Positions 5,141 to 11,750 of a stretch of 20,152 nt of DNA are shown here, piece after piece. Numbering within the stretch: position 1 is the stretch's first letter; every line of letters starts with the position of its first letter. The notes under the pieces are model-generated. The model did no database searches, was not told where the DNA came from, and saw only the letters and a list, made by a program, of their open reading frames with translations. The DNA is from an uncultured Lachnospiraceae bacterium (GTDB lineage Bacteria > Bacillota > Clostridia > Lachnospirales > Lachnospiraceae), in the NCBI GenBank assembly GCA_948494895.1, contig CAOOBR010000029.1:1-20152 (forward strand), given 5' to 3'. A program made the position numbers and the translations under genes.

Positions 5141-8100
5141 TCACTTCTCCTTTTTCTCTCTAATCCTGAATAAAAGTTCCTCCTCGGACAGCTCCTCTAA
5201 TTTCCGGTACGCATATCCCGGCGCCCTTACGTCAAATTGGCAGACGCTTTTGAACTCACAGTAATCACAGCCTGTCTTCCCGTCCAGCGAATACGGGTTT
5301 GAGCCAATATCCCCCTGAATTATGCGCTGTCCCAAATGCAGTATCGTCTCATTGACATAAGAGGACAGCGCCCCAAAGTCTTCTGCCGTCAAAGTTTTGG
5401 AAGTCTTTTTCAAACTGCCGTCTTTGTTAATTCCAACCGGAATTACGCTGGAATTTTTGCCCTCTCCTTCTCTAAGAGAAACATCCAAACTTTCGATCAC
5501 GTCCCTGTCTGCATTGACAACGCCGTTTAGCTTTAACTCACGGAATATTTTTTCATTTAATTCTTCCTCTACAAGCGTTTCATCTGCTTCAACCATCGGA
5601 TCATTGACATGGTAATAGAAAATGCCTGCCGGAACGGCAGTAATTTCAGGATAGCGTTTCTCCATCAGTTCTAATGCGGCGTTCATATAGACAACTAACT
5701 GAAGCTGAAGCCCATGGTAGACGTTTAAGAACTGAAAACTGGTATTTCCCGACTTATAATCAATAATTTTCACATATAATTTTTCGTTTTCCTTTAATGT
5801 GTCTATGCGGTCAATCCGTCCCCGCAGACGCATTCTTTCTTCTTCACTCAGACGGAAATTAACAGCATTTAAATCTTCTGTGTACGAAAACGAAACTTCA
5901 AACTCATCCGGCGTAAACCTCCCCTGCCGGACCTGATACAAAAGGGCATGGACTGTCCGTTTTAATATCCGTCGCATCCGCTCTTTGGCATAGTTGCTCC
6001 TCGCATTTTCATACAACGCCAAATTGTGGTTTTTCTCCAACGCCAAAGCCATGGATTCTTCCAGAAGGCTCTCACTCTCCTCTTTCGTAATGGTATGCCA
6101 GCTATAATTGTTCTGACGGATGCCCTCAGCAAACAACTGAAGCGCGTCATGGAAAATATTCCCATAATCCACGGCATAAAAACCGCTTTCTATGCGTTCC
6201 TTTAAATTTAACCCATAAGTAAGGAAATGGGCAAACGCGCAAGATGCAAAATTCTCCAGACGCGTCACGCTGTTTTCCAATTCCACGCCATAGAGGGCTT
6301 TCGTCACGGAAGCGGAAATCGGCATATCGGCATAGACATACTTTGCCGCCTCAAACAGACGCTTAGCTTCCTGCCTCCATTCTTCCTTAGATAAATACCA
6401 ACGGCAGAGAGCCGACCAACAGCGGATTTCATCTTCCCGCTTTTTCCGTTTCCACTCCGCCGCGGATTGCAATCCTTCCACTAAAAGCCCACGGGAGCTT
6501 TCCGGCGTGGCAATGCGTTCCAGAAAAGGCTCGTCCTCCACTTCGCAGATGCTTAAATTTTCATATAGCTTTAAAATCGTATGGATTAAATAGGAACTGC
6601 GCATTGCGCTTCCGTCCCCGCTCACCCTTGCATAAGAAAGGTAAAGCTTCTCTGATGGCTTTGTCAAAGTCAGGTACAAATAAAACTTCTGAATAAACGT
6701 CTGTTCCCGCACAGTCGGCGCAAGCTCAAGATTAAAACCCGCCAACTGTTCCCGCTCTGCCGCAGAAAGGATGCCGTCCGCCCCCTGAGCTTTCGGAATT
6801 ATGCCATCGTTGACCCCGACGAAAAACAACGCCTTTATATGCTCAAGACGCGTCCGCTCAATGTCCCCAAAGACAAGGCGGTCATATCCCGGAGGGATAA
6901 TCCCCACCTTTGCGGCTTCATATCCGGAATCCAAAATACGCGCATATTCTTCCAGCGGAATCGTCTCGCCGCCTAATAGCTCCGCCATTTTATCAAACAA
7001 ATCCATGATAATCTGGTAAATCTGGGCATATTCTTTGGCATTCTTTAAATCCCCCGCTTGTTCATACGCCAATTCCCTCTGCTTTAGCTGCCTCTCGGCG
7101 TCCCTGTCACAGATAAAACGGTAAAATGCTTTTGTCCGCTGCTCCACGGTCAGATTCTTTTCTTTCATAATATCATAAAAATCCGCAAACTGGCCTGCTG
7201 CTTTTTCACGGATTTCATTCACCGCCATAAGAGATTCCTCGTCGTATCCTTTCGGCAGATAGCAAAACGCTTCCTTCCATTTCCGATAACCGCGAATGCC
7301 TGCCGCCAGACAATAATTCTCTAATATGTCCACTTCCTTATCCGGAATCTGGGACAAACCGCTTCTTAAATACCGAAATATGCTCTCCATCGAAAAATCA
7401 TAAAGGACTGTCTCTAACGCGGCGCGTAAAAATTCCACAAACGGGTGGAACAGCGCCGTCGATTTCTGATCGAGAAACAATGGTATCCGGTATTTTGCAA
7501 ACACTTCCTTCGCATAATTGGCATACCCCGCCAAATCCCCGCAGACTACGGCTATCTCCCGATAATGGAAGCCTTCCTGTGTCAGGCGGTTTATTTCCCT
7601 TGCCACAAAGTGAAGCTCCGCTCTTGGATTTTTAAAACTGTATAGTTTCAGATCCGGCTCGTCTGAAAGCGTAAACCGCGTTCCCTTTTGCCGGAACAAG
7701 TTCTGTTCCAAAAAAAGGAGCTCTTTGGAATGCCCAAAACGGCTCTCTTTGGAATGTGGCAGTACAATGGGCTCTCTGACCGGAATATGTATCCTATCCG
7801 CCATTTCCCGCAATGATTTTATCATTTTCTTGCTCATTGCAAACAGTTCATGGCTGCCTGCGCACTGATAGAAACTCTCCCTAACGTCAATCGTCACTGT
7901 AACATAAACTTCCTCGGCAATGGCAAACAAACGGTTCAGCAGCAAATTTTGAATCGGCGTAAATCCGGTAAACCCGTCAAAAAAGATTACGCTTCCTTTT
8001 AAGATTTCCGACTGCCCTGCCACATCGGTTAAAAGTTCCAAAATTTCTTCCGCCGTGACAAACCGCCCTTCCAAAAAATCCAAAAATCCCTGATACATAA

Positions 8101-8578
8101 TCTGCACATCATGCAGTTTATGCGAAAAACTGCCATCTAAAATATTCTCCGATGCATCCAATAACTGGGACGGCGCAACATTATACTGTGACAATTCCGA
8201 AATCAGGGATTTTAATTCTTCAATATACCCCATTTTCGTGATATTCTTTTTTAAAACAGTCAGTTCGTCCGCTTTTTCCTCCGCCACCCGCCTTAAAACC
8301 AGATTTTTCCCCGTCTCCTCTAAGACCTGCCCGCGGAAACTGCCAAGCTCGTCAAAAATACGGTACGCCAGACGGTTAAAACTTAACACGTCAATATTTA
8401 AAATACTGTGATTTTTATGTACCGCCGCCAATTCCCTCTGCGTCTGCAATGTAAACTGTTCCGGCACTAGAAACAAAAAATTTTTCTTTGGCGAATCTGC
8501 CGCCAATTCAACTACTTTATGAGATATAAAATGCGTTTTGCCGCTGCCGGAATTGCCAAAAATAAATTGTAATGCCAT
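5141..8578 (-). CDS. addB: ATP-dependent helicase/nuclease subunit B (AddB) with C-terminal Fe-S cluster nuclease domain
   Basis: N-terminal Walker A MALQFIFGNSGSGKTHFI. C-terminal cysteine cluster GCDYCEFKSVCQF (C-x2-C-x5-C, plus an upstream Cys), typical of the AddB iron-sulfur nuclease domain. The ORF track begins at a TTG at 8635, but the in-frame ATG at 8576-8578 (MALQ...) with upstream AAGGATAAGGGA is the plausible start. The TTG overlies the promoter -10 element. Confidence 0.9.
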   Translation of the reverse strand: MALQFIFGNSGSGKTHFISHKVVELAADSPKKNFLFLVPEQFTLQTQRELAAVHKNHSILNIDVLSFNRLAYRIFDELGSFRGQVLEETGKNLVLRRVAEEKADELTVLKKNITKMGYIEELKSLISELSQYNVAPSQLLDASENILDGSFSHKLHDVQIMYQGFLDFLEGRFVTAEEILELLTDVAGQSEILKGSVIFFDGFTGFTPIQNLLLNRLFAIAEEVYVTVTIDVRESFYQCAGSHELFAMSKKMIKSLREMADRIHIPVREPIVLPHSKESRFGHSKELLFLEQNLFRQKGTRFTLSDEPDLKLYSFKNPRAELHFVAREINRLTQEGFHYREIAVVCGDLAGYANYAKEVFAKYRIPLFLDQKSTALFHPFVEFLRAALETVLYDFSMESIFRYLRSGLSQIPDKEVDILENYCLAAGIRGYRKWKEAFCYLPKGYDEESLMAVNEIREKAAGQFADFYDIMKEKNLTVEQRTKAFYRFICDRDAERQLKQRELAYEQAGDLKNAKEYAQIYQIIMDLFDKMAELLGGETIPLEEYARILDSGYEAAKVGIIPPGYDRLVFGDIERTRLEHIKALFFVGVNDGIIPKAQGADGILSAAEREQLAGFNLELAPTVREQTFIQKFYLYLTLTKPSEKLYLSYARVSGDGSAMRSSYLIHTILKLYENLSICEVEDEPFLERIATPESSRGLLVEGLQSAAEWKRKKREDEIRCWSALCRWYLSKEEWRQEAKRLFEAAKYVYADMPISASVTKALYGVELENSVTRLENFASCAFAHFLTYGLNLKERIESGFYAVDYGNIFHDALQLFAEGIRQNNYSWHTITKEESESLLEESMALALEKNHNLALYENARSNYAKERMRRILKRTVHALLYQVRQGRFTPDEFEVSFSYTEDLNAVNFRLSEEERMRLRGRIDRIDTLKENEKLYVKIIDYKSGNTSFQFLNVYHGLQLQLVVYMNAALELMEKRYPEITAVPAGIFYYHVNDPMVEADETLVEEELNEKIFRELKLNGVVNADRDVIESLDVSLREGEGKNSSVIPVGINKDGSLKKTSKTLTAEDFGALSSYVNETILHLGQRIIQGDIGSNPYSLDGKTGCDYCEFKSVCQFDVRAPGYAYRKLEELSEEELLFRIREKKEK

Positions 8579-8626
8579 AATCGATCCCTTATCCTTTTCT
8601 GCCAGAACTGCTTGTATCCTACAATA

Positions 8627-8655
8627 ATTATACAAAAAAGTATCTTACATTACAA
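8627..8655 (-). promoter_or_regulatory. Sigma-A type promoter for addB-addA
   Basis: On the minus strand: -35 TTGTAA (8655-8650), exactly 17-nt spacer, perfect -10 TATAAT (8632-8627), about 50 nt upstream of the addB ATG at 8578. Confidence 0.55.
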
Positions 8656-8666
8656 TAATTTCTCAT

Positions 8667-10724
8667 TTATTCAAAGCCAATCACATAACCCGCTTCATTT
8701 TCAAACAATACCGGATACTCCTCTAATGCTTCTTTATGCTTTTTTATAAAATCACTCTTTTTTAAAATAACCGCGTACAAAATCCCTTTTTCTTTTATCC
8801 GCTTAAAGATCTCCTCTTTCGGATACCGCCACCCGTAAAACTCTCCCAAATCATAGCCGGCCACGCCTTCATAAAAACAACAGTCCGCATAATCTTCTTT
8901 TTCCGTCAAAAGCGGCGTTTCCAGTCCGTCTGTCCGGCAATTTGCCATCACCCATTCATACAACGCAAGCTGCCCTTTTGACGGATCTGACCGCCCCCCA
9001 AGATCGGTAAATCCGGTTCCACGCATAAAGCTCAAACGCCTCACTGTAATGCCTGTCTACGCCGTTCCTTTCGTCCATGGAAGAAACAAACCTCCCATCA
9101 ATGCCGCTAAAAACCAAAATGCCGCAGAGCAAACAGCATCCTAAATTTGCCGCCGCTAATTCCCTGTTCTTTTTATATAAAATAGAAATCCCGCAAAAGA
9201 AAAAATACCAGCTAAATGCCCAAAGAGGATAATAATTCTTATAAAAATAATATTCTGAAATCCTGCCATACAGCGCGCCAAGCAGCATACACGCCGCAAA
9301 AACCAAAAATCCGGTAAAACACACTGCCTGAGGCTGTTTTTTCCTGATCCCCCGTATCCACCCATACCCCGCCATTGGCATTAAAAGAATAAAATTTCCA
9401 AATAAATTTGAATAAATCCCGCCTTCATTTTGAATGCTTCCTAAAATACTTGTTCCCTGACCGAAGAAAAAATCAAAATAGCAGAAATAAATCCCCAATG
9501 CGCACGGCAGTAAAAACACAAAATGCGTCTCTTTACATTTGGCAGAGAAACGCCTTTTTTTCTCCCCGCCCCACATCAATTCCAGCCAGACGCAGACAAA
9601 CGCCACAGGCGCAAACAACATATAGCAGACGCAAAGGGAAAAGCAGGCAAGCATAAGCTGGGCTAAAACAATTGAACGGCGCTCCATACGCTCCCTCTCC
9701 CTTTGCAGAAGTAGCAAAATATATATTAATAACAATACGCCCAATCCCCAGTAAGTGAATGAAAAATAAAAACTATGGATCGGATACGCCAGATAATAGA
9801 AAGGCACAGTAAGACAAACAAGCGCCGTCAAAAATTTACCTGCCGCAAGCTTCTTTATCCAAACAAAAAAAATCAAAATCTCCAGCCATTGAAACGCAAT
9901 ATCTGCGGCAATATATCCTTTGTACCATGTTACTTCACGCAAAAAGGCTGTAAAATTTCAAACACCATTGCAAACTGAAAATGCGAAAAAAACATTCCTT
10001 CCACCTGATTTGTCCGCAAGACCATAGTCGCTTCCCGCAAATGAAGCCCCGCATCAGAATTGGTATAGCGGTATTCTGTAAGAAACAGCCCCTGACAGCG
10101 CAACAAACAGCAAACTGAATATTCTGGCTGAATATGCAGTCCATACGCCATTCCAATGCAAAAGCCTTGCAATAGTAATCCCACACGCAGGCGCCAAATA
10201 AACGGGAAAAGGAACTGTTTGCTCTGCTTTTTTCCTTGTATACGAAACTGTCTGGGAATCCACTTTTTCAGTTGAAAACATTTTTCGGTAATAACCCGCA
10301 AATTCTTTTTCTCCATAAGTGTATGTCTGACCCTTCCTGTCCTCCTCCCGCATGACAGTGTATCCCTTGGCATCCGTCTCTTGCTTTTTCATCATTCGAT
10401 TCGACAAACGGTATGCGCTTGCAAAATGCGTATCTTCATCTGGAGCGGAAAAGGCAGGCAATACTAATTGGTACATTATGCCAATGATCAGCAGCATCCA
10501 AAAAAGCGGACTTCCATCTTACTTTTTTTCTTTTTATCTCTATACAGTTCTACGAAACCCAAAAGAGTCATGGACAAAAACGCCAATGCCAAATAGACAT
10601 TTTTTATAAGAAAGAAGTCTTGTTCTGGAATAAATTGCTTTATGCCAATATTCCAGAAAAACAGATAGAGCAATGCCAGACCCGCTTCAAAACCCAAACA
10701 TGCGAAAACTTTTTTCTTCTCCAT
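8667..10724 (-). pseudogene. Disrupted gene for a large polytopic membrane protein (GT-C-fold-like glycosyltransferase-type topology; PDExxH-like loop motif SAPDEDTHF) with a C-terminal soluble domain
   Basis: Fragments on the same strand: 10488..10826 (frame a; likely true start MEKKK at 10722-10724 with RBS GAGGTGGGA); 10054..10497 (frame b); 8956..9942 (frame b, about 9 TM helices); 8667..9044 (frame c, soluble). The frame a to b switch coincides with an A6 homopolymer at about 10500-10505. Adding one A fuses the frames and creates a 21-residue TM helix, VRFFWMLLIIGIMYQLVLPAF. Frame b stays open across 9943-10053 apart from two TGA codons (10054-10056 and 9958-9960). The frame b to c switch lies within 8956-9044. 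Elsewhere in the window TGA is a normal stop (htrA, addB). Confidence 0.5.
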
Positions 10725-10931
10725 TCCCACCTCTTTGCAGTTATTTTTCAATCCATATCCCCCAAAATTAAACACAAAAATAGAATACCCCCACGCTATC
10801 TGAGCAAGCATTCTATCTCTCAACAAAATCTACATACTTTTATATAAATTTACTCTTTCCTAACTGCCAAAAACCTTTCCTAATCTTTACAGATAAGTCC
10901 TTTGCAAAATTTATACTATAGAATATACATA

Positions 10932-10960
10932 ATAATACCACAGAATATTATTTCTGTCAA
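10932..10960 (-). promoter_or_regulatory. Strong sigma-A type promoter driving the disrupted membrane-protein gene
   Basis: On the minus strand: perfect -35 TTGACA (10960-10955), 17-nt spacer, -10 TATTAT (10937-10932). It lies immediately downstream of the ackA-operon terminator and about 200 nt upstream of the MEKKK start codon. Confidence 0.55.
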
Positions 10961-10968
10961 TTAGGCAT

Positions 10969-11030
10969 AAAAAAACACGAAAATTGTGGCTTTACATCAC
11001 ATAAAGTCATGCAAAGCACAATTTTCGTGT
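10969..11030 (-). terminator. Rho-independent terminator of the ackA-AIM24 transcription unit
   Basis: Long inverted repeat acacgaaaattgtg (10975-10988) / cacaattttcgtgt (11017-11030), extended by an imperfect inner stem gcttt(a)cat / atg(c)aaagc. On the minus strand it is followed by a 7-U run (10975-10969). It sits 45 nt past the stop of the 224-aa gene. Confidence 0.7.
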
Positions 11031-11075
11031 ATATTATTAATATTACAATACTCAGATCATTCCGGCAAAAACTCT

Positions 11076-11750
11076 CTATTTTGCCGGAAGGTACGGAATC
11101 AGCGTTCCTGCCATCTGTCCAATCGGCATAGACTGAAGCAACACGCGTCCCGGTCCCGTCACAACTGTATTAAATACGCCTTCCCCGCCGAACAGCATAT
11201 TCTTCACGCCCGGCACTTTCTGGATTTCAATAGAGCAGGTCGCATCCATTGCCGCCAAATATCCGGTGTCAATGACAATCGACTGTCCTGGAGCAAGGTT
11301 ATACTCTTTGATATAACCGTCAAATTCCACAAACGCCACGCCGCTTCCCGACAGTTTCTGCATAATAAACCCTTCTCCGCCGAACAGCCCACTTCCAACT
11401 TTTTTCTGGAAATGCACAGAAAACTCCACTTTATCCGTAGAAGCCAAAAACGCTGTTTTCTGGCAGATCATATCACGTCCCGGTGAAATGTCAAATGCGC
11501 GGATTGCGCCCGGAAAACTAGAAGCGAACGCAATCTCTCCCGGTCCTCCCATCGCGGTATAGTGGTTGACAAACATACTCTCTCCACTGAACATTCTGCC
11601 AAACATCTTGCCAACGCCGCCGCCCACAGTCTCCATTTTCATATTCGGGGACATCCATGACATTGCCCCTTTTTCCGTAATCATTTTTTCATTTTGCTCT
11701 AACTGGCAGATAACAACTGGCAGCGGTTCTCCTTCGATTGAATATTTCAT
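11076..11750 (-). CDS. AIM24 / TIGR00266 (DUF124) family protein of unknown function
   Basis: 224 aa. N-terminus MKYSIEGEPLPVVICQLEQNEKMITEKGAMSWM, the Gly-rich repeats and overall length match the bacterial AIM24/TIGR00266 family as I recall it. RBS GGAGGA before the ATG at 11750. Starts 13 nt after the ackA stop. Confidence 0.7.
   Translation of the reverse strand: MKYSIEGEPLPVVICQLEQNEKMITEKGAMSWMSPNMKMETVGGGVGKMFGRMFSGESMFVNHYTAMGGPGEIAFASSFPGAIRAFDISPGRDMICQKTAFLASTDKVEFSVHFQKKVGSGLFGGEGFIMQKLSGSGVAFVEFDGYIKEYNLAPGQSIVIDTGYLAAMDATCSIEIQKVPGVKNMLFGGEGVFNTVVTGPGRVLLQSMPIGQMAGTLIPYLPAK

Follow-up and report, generated by a model that had tools for sequence, protein, structure and literature searches.

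A probable deletion scar of a three-gene membrane protein operon upstream of addBA in an uncultured Lachnospiraceae bacterium

Do four overlapping open reading frames on one strand represent the pieces of a single broken gene, or the debris of a larger locus? This question is raised by a stretch of DNA of 20,152 nt (hereafter the window; contig CAOOBR010000029.1 of assembly GCA_948494895.1) from an uncultured Lachnospiraceae bacterium, in which four minus-strand open reading frames (ORFs; 10488-10826, 10054-10497, 8956-9942 and 8667-9044, referred to as ORFs 1-4) lie between a gene of the AIM24 family and addB. An earlier note on this DNA, which gave these coordinates exactly, had read the ORFs as consecutive pieces of one membrane protein of about 700 aa, separated by four small lesions (a frameshift, two TGA codons and a second frameshift). 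We found that the four ORFs match two unrelated proteins and that the main lesion is a 3-kb deletion, which took out the whole of a third gene. The region 8667-10960 (minus strand) is very probably a non-functional scar of a three-gene operon, whose genes are designated here A, B and C.

The scar between the AIM24-family gene and addB

A search with the four concatenated translations, as the earlier note had proposed, yielded two disjoint sets of matches and no homologue over the whole length of the query (coverage of 67% at most). The first set comprised DUF2142 proteins of ~509-530 aa, which covered only the first ~31% of the query (P0003, 97% identity), and the second comprised proteins of 578-616 aa without a Pfam domain, which covered only its distal part (P0001, P0002 and P0004, with 96%, 67% and 44% identity, respectively). 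ORFs 1-2 matched only the first ~216 residues of a DUF2142 protein of 512-529 aa, and ORFs 3-4 matched residues ~160-587 of a 587-aa protein unrelated to it. The Pfam model DUF2142 (PF09913) recognized the second ORF with 42.5 bits, above the gathering cut-off of 30.1, over profile positions 1-144 of 395, i.e. not as a full-length domain; the Pfam scan of the distal ORFs gave no significant match. When the distal family was compared with DUF2142 by profile-profile alignment (hhalign), the probability of a relationship was 1%. The earlier note had itself named membership of the fragments in unrelated families as an outcome that would speak against its one-protein model, and the model of a single gene was dropped once this search had split the matches in two. 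Its view of the region as the dead remnant of membrane protein genes of the surface-glycosylation type, with N-terminal pieces related to DUF2142, was borne out.

The genes are whole in related metagenome contigs (L001-L006, which encode P0003), as the earlier note had thought possible for sister strains. In this intact allele the AIM24-family gene is followed by A, B, C and addB. Gene A encodes a DUF2142 protein (529 aa as called, 512 aa from an MEKKK start) that matches the full profile with 147.5 bits; B (L001:2534-4327) and C (L001:4324-6087) encode proteins of 597 and 587 aa. With L001 as the reference for mapping of the lesions, the alignment of the window fell into two blocks of ~97% identity (11687..10076 to L001 1..1617, and 10075..8000 to L001 4679..6754). 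The segment missing from the window (L001 1618-4678; 3,061 bp) comprises 889 nt from the end of A, a spacer of 27 nt, the complete gene B and 355 nt from the start of C. The deletion has therefore removed the 3' 58% of A (42% survives), B in its entirety and the first 118 codons of C, and the remainder of the DUF2142 profile is missing from the window because it was encoded in the deleted DNA. All other length differences within these 3.7 kb are confined to homopolymers (three coding runs and a poly-G tract in the leader), and the flanking genes contain no indels in comparison with their relatives.

Read along the minus strand, the A remnant starts with MEKKK at the ATG at 10724, which is preceded by a good ribosome-binding site (RBS), AGAGGTGGG, already recognized in the earlier note. 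Codons 1 to ~73 (10507..10724) lie in the frame of ORF 10488-10826. They end at frameshift 1 (10500..10506), where the T8 run of the intact allele is replaced by CTTTTTT (one base fewer and two T>C changes). Codons ~74-216 (10076..10499) continue in the frame of ORF 10054-10497 and carry the extracytoplasmic PDEDTH loop together with the DUF2142 match. At the deletion junction, between positions 10076 and 10075, codon 216 of A is followed, in a different frame, by codon 119 of C (TTCTTACAG directly followed by AATACCGC). A search for microhomology at the junction revealed none; only an imperfect TCTTCCTT(TT)GC is present within the deleted segment, immediately next to each of its ends. Codons ~119-161 of C (9946..10075) are in the frame of a fifth ORF (9930-10373) that was absent from the earlier list; it contains YRYTNSDAGLHLREATMVLRTNQVEGMFFSHFQFAMVFEILQPF and the SD...H motif invariant in its family (YTNSDAGLH). 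Frameshift 2 (9941..9945) is a T5 run, common to all the deletion alleles examined, in place of the T6 of every intact allele. The transmembrane core of C (codons ~162-475; 9000..9940) follows in the frame of ORF 8956-9942, up to frameshift 3, a poly-G tract (8994..8999) with G6 instead of the G5 of intact alleles. The C-terminal soluble domain (codons ~476-587; 8667..8993) lies in the frame of ORF 8667-9044 and ends with the stop codon at 8667-8669. The motif SAPDEDTHFASAYRLSN and the hydrophobic segments noted earlier are visible in the three-frame translation.

Of the four lesions originally proposed, the first and the last are real 1-bp homopolymer indels, whereas neither TGA is a nonsense substitution: in their place there are the 3,061-bp deletion and the 1-bp deletion in the T run at 9941-9945. 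The two apparent TGA lesions result from out-of-frame reading across the junction, the TGA at 10054-10056 being the end of the A frame, six codons beyond it. Compared with L001, the deletion and the three frameshifts leave no uninterrupted reading frame colinear with the intact homologues. Moreover, no remnant product contains a complete core of the glycosyltransferase C (GT-C) type. The A remnant lacks profile positions 145-395, while from the C remnant the four N-terminal transmembrane helices are missing, and the invariant Asp/His loop that it retains sits in a separate frame.

The promoter-like sequence TTGACA-17-TATTAT at 10960-10932 on the minus strand, which had been noted before, is the best such site of the region (11/12 matches, with TG before the -10 hexamer); it was carried over from the intact operon, where it reads TTGACA-17-TAATAT. 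No terminator-like site or hairpin was found between the last remnant ORF and addB, in agreement with the earlier note. The scar thus goes back to one deletion by illegitimate recombination, through which codons 1-216 of A came to adjoin codon 119 of C and B was lost, and to three single-base homopolymer slips, which broke the remainder into the ORFs observed. With the promoter and the RBS surviving and nothing terminator-like following, transcription probably still runs through the remnant into addBA, although such a transcript would give no functional enzyme.

The surroundings of the scar can be described briefly. The neighbouring ORFs of 1192 and 1164 aa are both intact, as was claimed before. 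The longest ORF of addB starts with TTG at 8635 (1164 aa), and in identical contigs the gene was called with 1145 aa, which places the true start at the ATG at 8578 (MALQFIFGNSGSGKT); this leaves space for a second promoter-like site (TTGTAA-17-TATAAT; 8627..8655, minus strand) directly upstream of addB. A search of the window against Rfam gave no match. In NCBI, one fragment of the remnant is called “DUF2142 domain-containing protein”, and a 98-aa ORF corresponding to the C-terminal soluble domain of C (window 8667-8960; P0045, MCI9427789.1) bears the name “restriction endonuclease subunit S”; the latter is evidently a misannotated pseudogene fragment.

The proteins encoded by the intact operon

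Proteins B and C are paralogous and can be aligned along their entire length (26% identity, E 3e-46). Neither matched any Pfam or NCBIfam model, those of YfhO and PMT_2 included, and Pfam scans of 72 members of their family gave only scattered sub-threshold matches. Sequence profile searches against PDB, made separately for the B/C family and for DUF2142, found nothing. The family itself is large: an exhaustive HMMER search (E<=1e-3) with the C orthologue P0002 as the query revealed 570 representative clusters at 50% identity, nearly all of ~580-600 aa. Nine residues (K23, D125, H129, Y269, P274, G328, Y385, Y386 and K389) are invariant in the 72-member alignment, D125 and H129 being part of a YxxSDxxxH motif.

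Since the sequence searches of the B/C fold were empty, it was examined by structure prediction. The AlphaFold model of P0002, built on the B/C-family alignment, had a predicted local distance difference test score (pLDDT) of 94.5 and a predicted template modelling score (pTM) of 0.94. The predicted fold is that of a polytopic membrane protein and is superposable on solved GT-C enzymes. The likeness does not extend to sequence, as identity to AftA, ALG12, AglB/STT3 and ArnT is 8-11%. Furthermore, in the B/C proteins the helix leading into the conserved Asp loop is itself preceded by three additional N-terminal helices (topology according to the positive-inside rule), and their C-terminal domain is small (~110 aa). 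In the model, D125 and H129 lie in the loop after helix 92-113, which is placed outside the membrane by the positive-inside rule only. These features suggest that the intact operon encodes three membrane glycosyltransferases of the GT-C type. By analogy with characterized systems, A, B and C may have transferred sugars or oligosaccharides, carried by a polyprenyl phosphate, to a cell-envelope polymer at the outer face of the membrane.

The closest parallel to gene A is provided by the lactococcal proteins WpsI and WpsJ, DUF2142 proteins of the cwps cluster (PMC12599335), which are described as having a GT-C fold and as transferring or polymerising an oligosaccharide linked to undecaprenyl phosphate (C55-P) outside the membrane (PMC9574508). 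Protein A is likewise a polytopic DUF2142 protein, with the acidic/His motif PDEDTH in its first large extracytoplasmic loop. In contrast to WpsI and WpsJ, it has no detectable sequence match to any solved structure, and its gene is located not in a rhamnan/cwps cluster but in the interval from AIM24 to addB, together with two further genes of the putative GT-C type and with no rml, rgp, Wzx or GT2 (glycosyltransferase family 2) genes nearby; only 42% of it is left in the window.

The B/C family can be compared with the GT-C enzymes of three-component glycosylation (CsdB/CsdD/CsdG, YfhO, GtlB, GacL), which decorate wall polymers from a C55-P-sugar donor and whose loss alters phage susceptibility (PMC9733650, PMC9574508). 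Common to both are the polytopic architecture and the GT-C fold, predicted in the case of B/C, as well as the proximity of a GT2 gene in distant Clostridia metagenome-assembled genomes (MAGs; see below). The B/C proteins differ in falling outside all Pfam and NCBIfam models, in having no adjoining GT2 or GtrA partner at the locus of this species, and in that three putative GT-C genes stand together instead of one GT-C gene with a GT-A partner.

In a Roseburia MAG, orthologues of B, A and C (38%, 44% and 44% identical, respectively) are adjacent to one another, and the genes that flank them are quite different. On this ground, A, B and C form a conserved module. Upstream of the B-A-C module of Roseburia there is a gene for a 743-aa polytopic protein (L030:4401-6632), whose DDLQFHLMRI motif recalls the loops of the GT-C/YfhO type; a Pfam scan of this protein found nothing, and it might belong to the module as a fourth component.

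A search of genome contigs with protein C detected only relatives of 22-30% identity, in Clostridia MAGs. In distant Clostridia MAGs a gene of the B/C family is found two genes downstream of a GT2 gene for a 314-aa protein, with ruvB in between, which is a weak hint at a partner acting as a lipid-sugar synthase. The order GT2 gene (314-358 aa), ruvB, GT-C gene is conserved in three contigs (L017:7670-11698, L018:3041-8809 and L020:7709-11761), and in L018 a second, 587-aa GT-C copy lies directly downstream.

Frequency and history of the deletion allele

The ORF of 147 aa that begins after frameshift 1 and spans the deletion junction recurs without any change in 931 index blocks and in 439 contigs, the longest of 337 kb, which come from ENA, NCBI MAGs, JGI and Logan. 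The NCBI MAG entries for this locus (MCI9427784-89) carry the name “Eubacterium sp.”, and a 28-mer across the junction was present in one further metagenome contig. Six deletion-allele loci, aligned to the window over 2.5 kb, show 0-1 mismatches, and apart from these only their poly-G length varies. The intact genes occur on fewer contigs (69+39 for C, ~139 for B and ~70 for A). The deletion allele seen in the window is thus the commonest form of a presence/absence polymorphism within a gut Eubacterium species. The inactivation had been called recent in the earlier note; the still clean sequence of the remnant agrees with this, but the allele is already the majority form and is spread over hundreds of assemblies.

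The divergence of the two alleles has a peculiar distribution. In a site-by-site table, the ~95 sites at which the window differs from the intact haplotype all fall within 11391-8621. Outside this region the contigs L023 and L024 hardly differ from the window, and the flanks (ackA, AIM24 and addB, the last of these in L023/L024) are almost identical as well. Such an island of ~3% divergence, with near-identical sequence around it, is the signature of allele exchange by recombination, which is frequent at this locus. Contigs L026-L029 combine the deletion with an intact first T run, in a ~500-bp patch of the intact type (10976-10491) within a background of the window type. We had initially placed the deletion before frameshift 1 on the basis of these contigs, but this order was withdrawn, as recombination may have repaired the frameshift.

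Another lesion was observed in the lineage L023-L025, in which A carries an independent 73-bp deletion (L001 1811-1883; between positions 8843 and 8844 of L023) and B and C are intact. This deletion splits A into ORFs of 294 and 192 aa and is present on ~37-46 contigs.

The ratio of nonsynonymous to synonymous substitution rates (dN/dS) between the remnants and the intact allele is 0.09 for A and 0.12 for C (synonymous divergence, dS, ~0.11), as compared with 0.03 for addB. These low values indicate that most of the divergence is older than the inactivation. Polarization of the amino-acid changes in the C remnant with outgroups assigned 8 derived changes to the window lineage and 2 to the intact lineage, which is a weak sign of relaxed constraint.

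The poly-G tract of the C remnant (8994-8999) behaves as a hypermutable simple-sequence tract. It is G5 in all seven intact-C contigs that cover it, and G6, G8, G9, G10, G11 or G13 in deletion alleles whose contigs are otherwise identical (0-1 mismatches over 2.5 kb elsewhere). The contigs are distributed over the lengths as follows: ~245 with G6, 46 with G9, 41 with G7, G10 or G13, 19 with G11 and 11 with G8. Only ~8% of the deletion-allele contigs have the tract in frame, so the ORF of the C remnant is not being maintained, and the variation looks like unconstrained slippage in dead sequence and not like a maintained switch. Nor does the tract switch a complete functional product, as the protein that is read in frame is short of ~160 residues at its N-terminus, the invariant D/H loop among them. 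The poly-G tract of the leader (10788..10792, minus strand; ~65 nt upstream of the start codon) also varies, with lengths of 5-10: G5 in the window, G7 in L023, G8 in P0018/P0019, G9 in L001 and L026, and G10 in L024. Its length decides whether gene callers extend A upstream to MLAQIAWG...

How far do these data discriminate between the scar and other explanations? A single GT-C-like gene for ~700 aa, cut by two frameshifts and two nonsense mutations, would account for four contiguous ORFs on one strand, for the DUF2142 match of the first pieces and for the polytopic later pieces with their soluble C-terminal domain. It is practically excluded by the disjoint matches, none of which covers more than 67% of the concatenated protein, by the profile-profile probability of 1%, by the three separate genes of the intact allele and by the 3,061-bp alignment gap, which falls exactly between the two sets of matches. 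It could also be argued that the genes are intact in the organism and that the deletion and the indels are errors of this assembly, as the earlier note had considered; the three small lesions are all in homopolymers, where sequencing errors typically arise, and the poly-G length varies between assemblies. This is very improbable. The exact 147-aa ORF contains both the same junction and the same frameshift 1 on 439 contigs from four independent data sources, so the deletion is not an assembly artefact. In addition, the T5 run at 9941-9945 is common to all 12 deletion-allele contigs covering the site, the runs G6, T5 and T6 are short enough for reliable reading, and the flanking genes are free of indels.

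A third alternative is that the remnant is still used, with a truncated C' (425/426 aa, from a TTG at 9942) or A' being expressed and the poly-G tract making it a phase-variable contingency gene. Poly-G phase-variable glycosyltransferase genes are known from the contingency loci of Campylobacter and Haemophilus, which the present locus resembles in having, in a glycosyltransferase frame, a G tract whose length varies (6, 8, 9, 10, 11 and 13) among otherwise identical sequences. The preserved promoter and the low dN/dS of the remnants also point in this direction. The locus differs from the contingency loci in that the functional allele has a stable G5 and that expansion and variation occur only in the truncated remnant, which indicates that the variability arose after inactivation. 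Moreover, C' would lack four transmembrane helices and the invariant D125/H129 loop, the in-frame fraction of ~8% lies below the ~33% expected from random slippage, the low dN/dS reflects mostly divergence preceding the deletion, and derived changes in the C remnant are in excess on the window lineage. We therefore consider residual use improbable, though less so than the two explanations above.

Some observations nevertheless weigh against the interpretation of this locus as the dead remnant of a glycosyltransferase operon. There is no GT2 lipid-sugar synthase or GtrA-type flippase beside the locus, either in the window or in the intact allele, and we know of no glycan, donor or acceptor for this organism. 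About 30 contigs contain an uninterrupted C' ORF, restored by G8 and G11, and the poly-G length of the source genome was read from its own assembly alone. With the low dN/dS, and with only slight decay beyond the four lesions, the fragments may, as far as the sequence tells, retain some residual role.

Loss of the operon in a gut species

The appropriate annotation of the region is that of pseudogene remnants derived from two different genes; neither four separate small ORFs nor a single large pseudogene would describe it correctly. The un-annotated family of ~590-aa proteins to which B and C belong, predicted to have a GT-C fold and without a Pfam or NCBIfam model, is a candidate for the definition of a new family.

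Strains with the deletion allele probably lack one structure or decoration of their surface glycans, if A, B and C acted as their known counterparts do. In lactococci, the loss of a GT-C glycosylation system blocks infection by phage TP901-1 (PMC9733650). Two independent inactivations and their spread by recombination would fit selection by phages or host immunity; relaxed selection is equally compatible with the data. Loss of surface-glycan genes is by itself common and expected, and what we describe here is an ordinary, well-documented case of polymorphic loss. A more far-reaching interpretation, in which A, B and C constitute an undescribed module for extracytoplasmic glycan assembly or decoration in gut Clostridia, whose repeated loss is driven by phage or host-immune selection, draws on the two independent deletions, the ~3%-divergent recombination island and the hypermutable poly-G tracts; we regard it as speculative and rather unlikely.

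To conclude, the natural presence/absence polymorphism of three putative GT-C glycosyltransferases within one gut species represents a natural knockout series. Comparison of its alleles could reveal which envelope glycan is built by these proteins, and whether its loss changes phage sensitivity or recognition by the host.

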